Shown: piece by piece, positions 1-5,229 of the stretch
Layout: every line of letters starts with the position of its first letter
Position numbering within the stretch: position 1 is the stretch's first letter
DNA from: a virus
Taxonomy: Duplodnaviria > Heunggongvirae > Uroviricota > Caudoviricetes
Length of the DNA stretch: 5,438 nucleotides
Reading direction: 5' to 3' (one strand)
IMG/VR virus record: IMGVR_UViG_2778261417_000007
Made by a program: the position numbers and the translations under genes
The notes under the pieces: generated by a model
Told to the model about the DNA's origin: nothing
Databases searched by the model: none
What the model saw: only the letters and a program-made list of their open reading frames with translations

Positions 1-438
1 AACTGATGGAGATGGAAGCCACGGGAGCACCTCAAAAACACCATCATACACTAAATCAGTAAGTTGGCACCATTACCCAAAATCTCTTACTTGAGAAACG
101 GCCTATTTGAGATTTCAGTCGTGGCAGGATGATCAGTTGATTCGAGTATTGACGCATTTACGTTCTGAACGGCTGTAATAAAGTTGCGGGAGAGAAATGC
201 CGCTAGTATTTTGTAATTAATTGAATGCCGACGGTTTAATGAGAAGTCAAGAACACTACTTGTACTATAATCGTTCGATGTTAGTGAGGGTTTGATGCAA
301 AAAATGAAGTGATTGACCCTAAATTTGCGCGATCAGCGACAGATTGTACACCGAGATCCTGTGGGCTGGAATTTGCAGAGAAATACCGAAAATGATATCC
401 AATATTGTTTTCAGTTCCTACATCATACCTGATAAGGG

Positions 439-444
439 TATAAT
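439..444 (+). promoter_or_regulatory. Candidate sigma70 -10 hexamer (TATAAT) upstream of the cargo operon
   Basis: Perfect TATAAT 34 nt upstream of the ATG at 478. No convincing -35 at 16-18 bp spacing (TTCCTA at best) and no clear Shine-Dalgarno before the ATG. Weak, sequence-only call. Confidence 0.2.
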
Positions 445-477
445 CATAAAAATTAGGATAATTCAAGTTATAATTGT

Positions 478-894
478 ATGAATAAAAACGACCTTGAAGC
501 ATTATCTGACACTAGGCTTAATGAGGCCAAATGCTTGCTTGATCATGGCTTTTTTCATGGTGCATATTATCTTTGTGGGTATGCAGTTGAATGTGCATTG
601 AAGGCCTGTATTGCCAAGTCATTTTTACAACATGAGTTTCCAAACAAAAAAGTCGTAAATGATTCATATACTCATGATTTGTCGCAACTTCTCAAAATTG
701 CCAACTTACATCAAATTTTGATTGCTGACGCAAAAAATGATGTTTCGTTGGAGATTAACTGGTCGGTCGTTAAAGACTGGAGCGAGCAATTTAGATACGA
801 CAATAACATAAGTAAAGCTATGGCCGAACAATTGTTTGATGCTGTAGGTGACCAAAATTCTGGAGTTTTGAAATGGGTAAAAGCACACTGGTAA
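478..894 (+). CDS. Hypothetical protein with HEPN-like helical signature (138 aa); first gene of two-gene cargo cassette
   Basis: Intact 138-codon ORF in an AT-rich block. N-terminal segment LNEAKCLLDHGFFHGAYYLCGYAVECALKACIAKS and later SYTHDLSQLLKIA resemble the conserved helices of HEPN-fold proteins (pattern recognition, not a search). Canonical R-x(4-6)-H motif not found. Its stop overlaps the next ORF by 22 nt. Confidence 0.6.
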   Translation: MNKNDLEALSDTRLNEAKCLLDHGFFHGAYYLCGYAVECALKACIAKSFLQHEFPNKKVVNDSYTHDLSQLLKIANLHQILIADAKNDVSLEINWSVVKDWSEQFRYDNNISKAMAEQLFDAVGDQNSGVLKWVKAHW

Positions 895-1274
895 TCGGCA
901 GAGAGTTGACAAAAGATATGGAATTCTCAGGTCAATTTTTATTAAAAAAACTCAAGTTACAGAATTTAACCATTGATGCTGCAATGTGGTTTTATTACCC
1001 AGATCTATCTTGGAGATATATTTTAGTTATCAGTGACTTCTCAGAACGTGGACCGGCAGAAATATATAGAAAAATCAGTGAGATAAATAGAAACAGCATA
1101 TCAAAAAAGTATAAGCCGATACCATTAGAAGCAATTGAGGCTAAGGGGGATTCAGCTTTTATTTATAAAATGTTAAAAGGATTTGCTAGAGTCAACGATG
1201 GTAAAGTTCGCGTTTCTAATTCTATGGTAAATGGTTTAGAAATCGTTGACTGTCTGATCTATGAGTTAAAATAA
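873..1274 (+). CDS. Hypothetical protein (133 aa); second, translationally coupled gene of the cargo cassette
   Basis: ATG at 873 preceded by GGAG (862-865) at 7 nt spacing. Overlaps the upstream ORF by 22 nt in a different frame. No motif I can recognise (no NTase G[SG]...DxD, no obvious HTH). Same AT-rich composition as 478-894. Confidence 0.55.
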   Translation: MGKSTLVIGRELTKDMEFSGQFLLKKLKLQNLTIDAAMWFYYPDLSWRYILVISDFSERGPAEIYRKISEINRNSISKKYKPIPLEAIEAKGDSAFIYKMLKGFARVNDGKVRVSNSMVNGLEIVDCLIYELK

Positions 1275-1345
1275 GAAATCTCTTGCTGGGTATCATTATT
1301 GTTTAAATGACTTTTGATTTTCAATAATCAACTTGTCATAATTAA

Positions 1346-1374
1346 GTCACCGGAGTTTGAACTCCTCCGGTGAC
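1346..1374. other. Perfect stem-loop (10 bp stem GTCACCGGAG / CTCCGGTGAC, 9 nt loop) at the boundary between AT-rich cargo and the nin module
   Basis: Inverted repeat read directly from the sequence. No T-tract follows on the plus strand (TTCTGCGC); on the minus strand it is followed by TTAATTAT. Could be a boundary/processing hairpin or a weak terminator. Confidence 0.4.
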
Positions 1375-1397
1375 TTCTGCGCTAAACGGGGACGTTT

Positions 1398-1499
1398 ATG
1401 CGCACATACAATCCAAACTCTCTTCTCCCTTCACAGATGCAGAAATGCACCTGCGATATCTTGCATCCAGCGTTTGATCTCTGCGGAGGTGAAGCGTGA
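1398..1499 (+). CDS. ylcH: Small 33-codon ORF ([33 protein letters not shown]), YlcH-like position immediately upstream of ybcN
   Basis: ATG at 1398 with GGGGA 5 nt upstream. Stop TGA 1497-1499 overlaps the GTG start of the next gene (GTGA). Length and position match my recollection of the 33-aa ylcH of DLP12; sequence identity not verified. Confidence 0.4.
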
Positions 1500-1951
1500 A
1501 CTTCCCACAAGATGGCATCAAACTGCATCGCGGTAACTTCACCGCTATCGGTCGGCAGATCCAGCCTTATCTGGAGGACGGCAAATGCTTTCGCATGGTG
1601 CTTAAACCGTGGCGCGAGAGACGCAGTCTTTCCCAGAATGCACTCAGCCACATGTGGTACAGCGAAATCAGTGAATACCTCATCAGCAAGGGTAAAACGT
1701 TCGCTACTCCAGCTTGGGTAAAAGATGCTCTCAAACACACATATCTCGGTTATGAAACCAAAGACCTGGTTGATGTCGTAACCGGTGATATCACCACTAT
1801 CCAGTCGTTACGCCATACCTCCGATCTTGATACCGGAGAGATGTATGTCTTCCTGTGTAAGGTTGAAGCCTGGGCGATGAATATTGGTTGCCACCTGACT
1901 ATTCCACAGAGCTGCGAGTTTCAGCTGCTGCGCGACAAGCAGGAGGCGTAA
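1496..1951 (+). CDS. ybcN: NinB-family recombination protein (YbcN-like, 151 aa), GTG start
   Basis: GTG start with GGAGG (1482-1486) 9 nt upstream. Contains the RSLSQN-type motif characteristic of NinB (lambda NinB has RSLDQN). Size and position match ybcN in DLP12 gene order. Confidence 0.85.
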
Positions 1952-3385: not shown

Positions 3386-3420
3386 TAAAAATTATTAAAA
3401 ATGGGGCGTTGCAACGCCCC
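3386..3420 (-). terminator. Rho-independent terminator for minus-strand (porin) transcripts
   Basis: Perfect GC-rich palindrome GGGGCGTTGCAACGCCCC (3403-3420). On the minus strand it is followed by ATTTTTAATAATTTTT (complement of 3386-3402). About 140 nt past the porin stop. Confidence 0.6.
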
Positions 3421-3433
3421 CAAAAATAAAGGG

Positions 3434-3460
3434 TAATATATAACAGAAGGTTTATATAGT
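3434..3460 (+). promoter_or_regulatory. Candidate late promoter (pR'-like) -10 TAATAT with downstream -10-like pause element TATAGT
   Basis: TAATAT (3434-3439) with a possible -35 TTGCAA (3409-3414) at a long 19 bp spacing. A -10-like hexamer TATAGT (3455-3460) would lie in the initially transcribed region, as in sigma70-dependent promoter-proximal pauses used by Q proteins. Hypothesis only. Confidence 0.2.
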
Positions 3461-3486
3461 TAGAAGCAAGGTTGTGCTCCTAAAGG

Positions 3487-3548
3487 AAGTGGCTTGAGGG
3501 AGCCACTTATATGTTGGGGAGGCAAAGCCTCCCGCAACATATCTTTTT
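3487..3548 (+). terminator. Tandem hairpins ending in a plus-strand intrinsic terminator (candidate tR'-like / quuD terminator)
   Basis: Hairpin 1: AAGTGGCT / AGCCACTT (3487-3508, 8 bp stem). Hairpin 2: 15 bp stem with one bulged G (3509-3523 pairing 3527-3542, loop AAA), followed by C then TTTTT (3544-3548). No T-tract on the minus strand after these hairpins. Confidence 0.6.
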
Positions 3549-4641: not shown

Positions 4642-5229
4642 CGTGAGCCCTTTTTTTTGAACTATTATTAAAAAATGATGTCACTGCGCGATAAATATTC
4701 ATCTAATCAATGTGATTATTTCAAGATGTAAGTTTTAGTTTCTCATTTAATTTGTGAAGTAGATCTCTATTTTTATCTGAACTTTTTCTATCGAAACCTA
4801 TTTATGGCTCTTATTTGAACAAAAATAAACCTATTAGCTAATTTATATTAATGGTTGTTATTTATGGAGGTTCTATAATTCGGCAGTTTAATTTAAATCA
4901 ACTAAAAATAACGTCTGAAATTATTTATTGGTTATTTGTTGAGGTTTTCTTATGTATTTGTGGTGGTGTTTTGAACACTCGGTAGCATTCTCATAAATAT
5001 CATTCAGTGGTTTACGTACGTAAAAAATTGGTTATGCTGTTAAGAGTGGTTACTTCGTCACACAGCTTAAACCCGCCGTCGAGCTGGTTTTTCCATTTTT
5101 TGAGTCTCGATATTAGCTGATAACTCAATACCTGAGTTATTCACTGACTCCGAGTCTGTTACGTTTCTGCTTTTTTGCGATACGTTGTATTCCCTCAATT
5201 TACACCCGCTTTGTCTGCGAGGTGGGGTT
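4642..5229. promoter_or_regulatory. AT-rich divergent intergenic region: expected porin promoter (minus strand) and holin upstream signals
   Basis: About 590 bp without a convincing ORF between the divergently oriented porin and holin genes. Plus-strand candidate promoter -35 TTGAAC (4971-4976), 17 bp spacer, -10 TAAATA (4994-4999). Holin RBS GAGGTGGGG at 5219-5227. Exact promoters not resolved. Confidence 0.35.

Follow-up and report, generated by a model that had tools for sequence, protein, structure and literature searches.

The DNA considered here, called the window below, is a stretch of 5,438 nucleotides from a virus of the Caudoviricetes (IMG/VR record IMGVR_UViG_2778261417_000007). 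Its open reading frames (ORFs) and their Pfam matches identify it as a segment of a DLP12/phage-82-like lambdoid prophage, in line with the RefSeq annotation of near-identical Escherichia coli loci. Judged by comparison with these relatives, the interval 78-1311 is a variable cargo slot of this prophage, flanked on one side by the replication genes and on the other by the nin-like operon ylcH-ybcN-ninE-ybcO-rusA-ylcG-quuD. In the window, the slot is filled by an AT-rich cassette of two overlapping genes, one coding for a HEPN-domain protein and the other (ORF2) for a small partner protein. It is followed by a conserved segment ahead of ylcH, named the linker, which carries a promoter-like site and a hairpin (Table 1).

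Table 1. Location of the cargo slot, its edges and the backbone features that follow it in the window.
Feature	Position	Strand	Remarks
IS1 end: terminal inverted repeat and start of insA	1-77	-	inserted at 77/78; truncates the region upstream of the cassette
Antirepressor-gene relic (P22AR-C type), last ~28 codons	93-178	+	frame 2, stop 176-178
Non-coding spacer of the E. coli cassette version	179-424		unannotated
Conserved 5' region of the cassette	425-477	+	-10-like TATAAT 439-444; weak -35; no clear ribosome-binding site for the HEPN gene
HEPN-domain protein, 138 aa, HEPN-T clade (like AF0298, TT1696); putative RNase/toxin	478-894	+	
Partner protein (ORF2), 133 aa, no Pfam family; putative antitoxin/regulator	873-1274	+	ribosome-binding site GGAG 862-865
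Cassette 3' tail to backbone junction	1275-1311	+	Klebsiella cassettes align to 1286; backbone homology from 1294/1303/1310-1314
Promoter-like site in linker	1314-1342	+	TTGATT, 17 nt, CATAAT, TG before -10
Perfect 12-bp hairpin with 9-nt loop (UUUGAACUC)	1344-1355/1365-1376	+	backbone linker ahead of ylcH
ylcH	1398-1499	+	first nin-like backbone gene; RefSeq annotation of relatives
ybcN	1496-1951	+	RefSeq annotation of relatives; weak Pfam NinB match, below cut-off
Genes after ybcN, in order			ninE, ybcO (PF07102), rusA (PF05866), ylcG, quuD (PF06530)
nmpC/ompC-type porin gene, intact, 360 aa	3559-4641	-	then start of essD

The cassette is clearly set apart from the backbone by its composition. 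The G+C content (GC) is 0.357 over 78-1311 vs. 0.51 over ylcH-ylcG (1398-2900), values about eight standard errors apart by arithmetic from the counts. The two cargo genes have a GC of 0.369 (HEPN gene) and 0.333 (ORF2), and at third codon positions (GC3) they reach only 0.345 and 0.306, compared to 0.44-0.59 for the backbone genes. In two relatives free of insertion sequences, L001 (the window's own lineage) and L002 (an O26-type prophage), the 1234-bp segment with the lowest GC of ~13.4 kb coincides with the cassette, at 6051 and 6101, respectively. The original prediction, made from the sequence of the window, had described an AT-rich, moron-like block acquired by horizontal transfer, with ordinary composition from ~1380 onward. 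Its AT-richness is borne out by both GC and GC3, but the part from 95 to 300 is just mildly AT-rich (~0.40), and the DNA further downstream is not uniformly ordinary, with a GC of 0.427 for quuD, 0.44 for nmpC and 0.33 for 4642-5229.

The junctions that enclose the cassette enclose different genes in other prophages. In K-12, which has the same backbone, the slot holds ybcL-ybcM; in strain E20, an antirepressor fragment and a 309-aa gene; in strain 41, a 118-aa gene; and in CUVET16-394, an inverse autotransporter. When the 400 bp proximal to the linker were compared among the viral contigs with the linker and at least 1300 bp upstream of it (n = 104), they fell into 61 clusters; this cassette was found in four, together with one divergent copy. 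Further occupants are an AraC-type regulator, an alpha/beta hydrolase (esterase), a NADAR protein (PDC-M42C), an HNH/LexA-DB protein, a NACHT NTPase and a HEC-07 candidate. The cassette is carried by 186 of the 5426 complete E. coli genomes, and a megablast search of deposited phages with 78-1380 gave no match. Horizontal acquisition, as originally proposed, is supported by both the distinct composition and the alternative occupants at the same junctions. In one viral contig (L028), the slot codes for a 159-aa protein that contains RNNLFH, an Rx4H-like motif. Neither Pfam nor PADLOC matches this protein, which may be an unrelated HEPN-like toxin.

In some prophages, the linker is present twice. 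L002 contains two copies as direct repeats around the cargo (4924-5046 vs. 7246-7368; 123 bp, 87.8% identity): the extra copy includes a truncated ylcH and lies 2.3 kb before the intact one, with the antirepressor gene and the cassette between the two. L050 and L056 also have two copies each, at a distance of 1.9-2.4 kb. Such duplicated linkers are what recombination at the linker would be expected to leave behind when cargo is exchanged. Cargo would then be swapped at this conserved segment (~1312-1397 and the start of ylcH), whose promoter-like site and structured hairpin precede the nin-like genes whatever the cargo.

At its left side, the window ends in an insertion sequence. Bases 1-77 comprise the terminal inverted repeat and the insA start of IS1. 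Of 5426 E. coli genomes, 4960 have matches to this stretch in features annotated as 'IS1 family transposase', the median being 10 copies; the alignment of the best cassette-bearing relatives without the element begins exactly at base 78. The reverse complement of this stretch is identical at 68 of 76 positions to the left end of IS1. No complete E. coli genome of the collection has an IS1 at the 77/78 site, and the IS1/cassette junction had no exact counterpart among species-representative genomes. The insertion would be later than the arrival of the cargo.

Next to the IS1 end lies the relic of an antirepressor gene, cut off upstream by a TGA at 92-94 and a recombination junction at 93. L002 possesses the intact gene in the same frame: it codes for a 202-aa protein ('P22AR C-terminal domain') that matches anti-repressor PHROGs, it ends at the equivalent of position 178, and the homology of L002 to the window begins at 93. 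The interval 93-171 also shares 81% identity with the 3' ends of the same antirepressor gene type in L004 and L005. The left edge of the island had been placed at ~95, behind the supposed 3' end of an upstream gene with its stop at 92-94. Since 1-77 matches IS1 features and the relatives align from 78, this is not a gene end; the edge consists of the IS1 junction and the gene relic. Alignment with related prophages places the junctions at 77/78 (IS1), 93 and 1294-1314 rather than at 95 and the hairpin. In L002, there is a compositional step at the antirepressor stop codon, from a GC of 0.473 to 0.358. No sharp left edge in composition is seen in L001, the closest relative of the window, where the cassette is preceded by a gene that is also AT-rich (0.392). 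This L001 gene (5442-5936) is annotated 'T6SS-associated protein TagO' (phrog_1848, function unknown), a RefSeq name that looks doubtful for a prophage gene; it may be a second cargo gene.

The spacer that follows the relic is present in one copy each in 186 E. coli genomes, with at least 99% identity, and is not found in the Klebsiella, other enterobacterial or Acinetobacter versions of the cassette. Nucleotide similarity between the window and the divergent cassettes begins at 425, 433 and 477, and the cassettes that share homology from 425 or 433 are 70-75% identical. Within the shared segment, GTATAAT (438-444) is kept in three enterobacterial versions, namely the window, L020 and L013, the last of which has TGTATAAT. 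From this conserved motif, transcription is predicted to start near 450, which would leave a 5' untranslated region of ~27 nt. The gene pair would then have its own promoter, and its transcription would not depend on the phage early operon.

The product of the first gene folds as a HEPN helical bundle and matches Pfam (PF05168/HEPN-T) with a score above the cut-off. Across 23 homologues, the residues R13, E38, K42, H66, N94, W95, W101, R106 and Y107 are invariant; H66 is a second invariant histidine, located upstream of the motif arginine R106. This arrangement matches the one described for AF0298 and AbiV-like HEPN-T proteins, in which an alternative upstream histidine could complete an active site (PMC3710099). 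AbiV, which is reported to be an RNase (bioRxiv 10.1101/2024.05.05.592566), has the same closest structural neighbours as the protein studied here: AF0298, TT1696 and the sacsin HEPN domain. The likeness has its limits, as identity to the solved HEPN-T structures AF0298, TT1696 and ST0689 and to AbiV is only 17-19%, and none of these proteins comes from a lambdoid prophage slot. Moreover, AbiV is paired with an RNA antitoxin (bioRxiv 10.1101/2024.05.05.592566), whereas the partner here is a protein. A profile of the HEPN protein matched no PDB sequence, and no NCBIfam model matched the HEPN protein or its partner.

The partner protein resembles no characterized family. Its only PHROG match is phrog_5760, a lenient Pfam scan of 43 homologues gave scattered noise, a profile search of PDB sequences returned chance-level matches to pyruvate oxidase only, and Foldseek against the PDB gave nothing significant. 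It has neither the GS and DxD motifs of nucleotidyltransferases nor a match to PF01909, which makes adenylylation of a toxin by this protein unlikely. A literature search for PDC-M28, the PHROG identifiers and ylcH found nothing relevant.

ORF2 begins 22 nt inside the HEPN gene, and because of this overlap the two genes are probably translationally coupled. The pairing is strict. Relatives of the HEPN protein were confirmed in no fewer than 591 species genomes, and 783 representatives make up the partner family; in all 80 of the best 80 loci, located with the HEPN alignment, a partner homologue lies directly downstream on the same strand, usually overlapping. These loci belong to Acidobacteriota, Chloroflexota, Planctomycetota, Desulfobacterota, Bacteroidota, Nitrospirota and Proteobacteria. 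The pair was seen in several contexts: in L009, it is part of a toxin-antitoxin-rich island with Fic, VapBC, HicB and PIN genes; in a Chloroflexota locus (L011:3001-3800), it is inserted between purM and purH in a purine biosynthesis cluster, its genes overlapping by 22 nt just as those of the window do; and in an Acinetobacter prophage, it adjoins AbiH and umuDC. The pair also occurs in prophage cargo regions of Klebsiella and other Enterobacteriaceae.

On the right side, the cassette ends before the hairpin. With 1100-2100 as query, the ybcN region was found in 2971 genomes, most of which align only from 1310-1314, while others align from 1294, 1303, 1369 or 1378. The original prediction had reported a perfect 10-bp inverted repeat exactly at the right edge of the island. 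The repeat is real, and is contained in a perfect 12-bp stem, but relatives with other cargo align from 1294-1314, 30-50 bp before it. The hairpin and the promoter-like site are common to all aligned relatives with other cargo, which places the hairpin in the backbone linker rather than at the edge of the cargo. Both are present even in L020, whose downstream genes differ. The promoter-like site has 9 of 12 consensus matches with an extended -10, and both hexamers are kept in relatives that carry other cargo. Its -35 is overlapped by a short A/T-rich inverted repeat (TTGATT...AATCAA, 1314-1331), which is found in most aligned relatives (K-12, L005 and L020, and partially in L004 and L006) and may serve as an operator or form another small hairpin. 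On the minus strand, a leftward promoter-like site, TTGAAA-18-AATAAT (1324-1295; 10 of 12 matches), would give an RNA antisense to the 3' end of ORF2, though it may be a chance match in AT-rich DNA.

The 101 nt around the hairpin fold with z = -5.84, and none of 200 shuffled sequences folded as well. Variants were collected from more than 120 IMG/VR contigs by a pattern search anchored on the loop and the right arm; as the pattern fixed TGAAC and GGTGAC, the conservation of those bases is no evidence. All 44 distinct variants fold, 33 of them with G.U pairs in the plus sense, and several stems are changed on both sides (e.g., GCCGCCGG/CCGGCGGU, GCUGAUGG/CCAUUGGU and CGACAGA/UCUGUUG). The G.U pairs and compensatory changes favour a hairpin structured at the RNA level, on the plus strand. 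The folding energies of the two strands over the 44 variants were uninformative (23 vs. 21).

In many respects, the cassette behaves like the morons and the cargo regions of other lambdoid phages. It is present at the same junctions in some relatives and absent in others, it has a distinct composition, here a lower GC, and it sits among the early genes, as do other lambdoid accessory genes. A promoter of its own, another moron trait, is probable. In contrast to typical morons, no terminator of its own was found in a scan of 1-1600, and the flanking hairpin belongs to the backbone and lacks a U-tract. The apparent exchange of cargo at a conserved and sometimes duplicated linker also differs from a simple insertion between two genes.

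Other accounts of the block and its flanks can be set against these data. That the AT-rich block is ancestral phage backbone, its composition being a gene-specific bias, is hardly credible: it occupies the same place in several prophages of Shiga toxin-producing E. coli (STEC), and nothing further speaks for such an origin, against the many alternative occupants at the same junctions and the occurrence of the same gene pair in unrelated prophages and in non-phage contexts of other phyla. The region 95-477 had been taken for an untranslated leader of ~380 nt, with an embedded regulatory RNA or an H-NS nucleation site. Its GC is 36-40%, and DNA of this kind is bound by H-NS, so that binding to the 36% GC DNA is plausible. 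It is also conserved at 99% or more alongside the cassette in the 186 E. coli genomes; this identity mirrors recent clonal spread and therefore says nothing on constraint. As a leader, however, the region is improbable. It is a composite of the IS1 junction, the gene relic and a spacer missing from divergent cassettes, the homology shared by the cassettes begins only at 425-433, and the conserved -10 (439-444) lies within it. Nor did a regulatory RNA come to light: an Rfam scan of the whole window (E <= 1) gave no match, and 179-477 folds no better than shuffled sequences on either strand (z = -0.83 and +0.06). The hairpin, for its part, could be a terminator or attenuator that insulates the nin-like operon from the cargo, a counterpart of lambda tR2 that would in effect terminate cargo transcripts though it belongs to the backbone. 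In lambda, the intrinsic terminator tR2 lies at the equivalent position, directly before ninB, the first gene of the nin region, and the stem found here is strong, G+C-rich and conserved with compensatory changes. This role is nevertheless doubtful, because tR2 is a canonical intrinsic terminator with a U-tract, whereas the hairpin has none (it is followed by UUCUGCGC) and is preceded by a conserved promoter-like site; in addition, a terminator scan of 1-1600 returned 0 sites. The promoter-like site ends 2 nt before the hairpin, so the transcript start would fall inside the left arm, an arrangement that suits an operator, or a hairpin stabilising the 5' end, no less well than a terminator. Lacking a U-tract, the hairpin is, on its sequence, not a moron terminator in the usual sense; it may be a terminator-like insulator, a 5'-terminal stabiliser of the transcript from the linker promoter, or an operator.

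Taken as a whole, the locus is best explained as a swapped-in, AT-rich two-gene cargo in a lambdoid slot, forming a putative toxin-antitoxin or abortive-infection module with its own promoter, an explanation to which a probability of about 60% can be assigned. Strict pairing, translational coupling, small size, mobility and genomic contexts are hallmarks of such modules, and the pair is most likely one of them, a variant of the HEPN/MNT type. The HEPN protein would be a latent RNase toxin, restrained by its partner through binding and not through adenylylation, and the module would benefit the lysogen or the prophage. Cargo status, junctions, strict gene pairing, the HEPN fold and conservation of the linker are established by the comparisons, whereas toxicity, neutralisation, a part in defence, promoter activity and the function of the hairpin are inferred. 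Some results weigh against this explanation. The Rx4-6H motif is absent, with no histidine 4-6 residues after R106, and the HEPN protein could thus be non-catalytic. In the canonical HEPN/MNT system (HepT/MntA, type VII), the antitoxin gene comes first, whereas the HEPN gene is the first one here and in 80 of 80 loci. The PADLOC match of the HEPN protein to the candidate system component PDC-M28A (E = 1.8e-7) speaks for a defence module, but it is weak, and no PDC-M28 model matched the partner, whose sole match was PDC-M02B (E = 0.048). A tblastn search with the HEPN protein found a homologue in 1 of 50,697 deposited phage genomes, a Klebsiella phage. Finally, the consensus promoter scan did not list the TATAAT site at 439-444, and its -35 is poor. 

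Some of these points serve an alternative in which the pair is no toxin-antitoxin or defence system and the HEPN protein binds nucleotides or RNA without being catalytic, the pair having another regulatory role or one in lysogenic conversion. Besides the missing motif, this agrees with the existence of HEPN domains that are non-catalytic binding domains (PMC3710099), with the non-defence cargo of the same slot (the AraC regulator and the esterase), and with the location of the pair within the pur operon in Chloroflexota. It is unlikely, however, given that the invariant R106, H66, E38 and K42 fit the proposed alternative active site, that RNase activity is reported for AbiV, whose closest structural neighbours are the same, and that the two-gene pairing, the mobility across phyla and the contexts of toxin-antitoxin islands and prophage cargo are typical of toxin-antitoxin and abortive-infection modules.

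Even as such a module, the pair is not a regular HEPN/MNT system. Canonical members combine a HEPN protein with the Rx4-6H motif and a minimal nucleotidyltransferase (GS...DxD); here the HEPN protein falls into the PF05168/HEPN-T clade and not into DUF86. As motif, nucleotidyltransferase partner and gene order all fail, the pair would work like a HEPN/MNT module but is not filed as a member.

Some observations concern the remainder of the window. The interval 4642-5229, between the nmpC-type porin gene and essD, has a GC of 0.235-0.30 in 200-nt windows and is AT-richer than the block originally flagged. The porin gene is intact here, while an IS5 element is annotated beside the same gene in K-12. 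The interval from quuD to the 3' end of the porin gene (3400-3545) contains two G+C-rich inverted repeats, judged terminator-like by eye: GGGGCGTTGCAACGCCCC, with A/T runs on either side, at about 3403-3420, and GGGAGGCAAAGCCTCCC at about 3517-3533.

The compositional island itself is an ordinary textbook prophage moron, whose edges had been mislocated. The comparison nevertheless defines, with precise boundaries, a hypervariable slot in a very common family of E. coli prophages, and the short conserved linker can be searched to harvest its cargo, including candidate defence genes such as the NACHT, HEC-07 and NADAR genes of the same slot. The two cargo genes of the window form a strictly conserved family to which no function has been assigned; it departs from HEPN/MNT in every diagnostic feature, and its HEPN protein keeps a plausible alternative active site. 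More tentatively, the pair might represent an undescribed and widespread class of toxin-antitoxin or abortive-infection systems, and the promoter and hairpin unit an uncatalogued structured RNA or operator; the odds of this reading are below even. If so, an RNase with an alternative His/Arg active site would be controlled by a partner that is not itself an enzyme and may stem from a minimal nucleotidyltransferase. The promoter and hairpin (loop with UGAAC) ahead of ylcH would both regulate the nin-like operon and serve as a recombination linker for a hypervariable cargo and defence hotspot of DLP12/phage-82-like prophages. The cassette is common in the prophages of STEC (O157, O26 and O111), and a role in defence or addiction, if true, would bear on the dynamics of phages and prophages in these strains.

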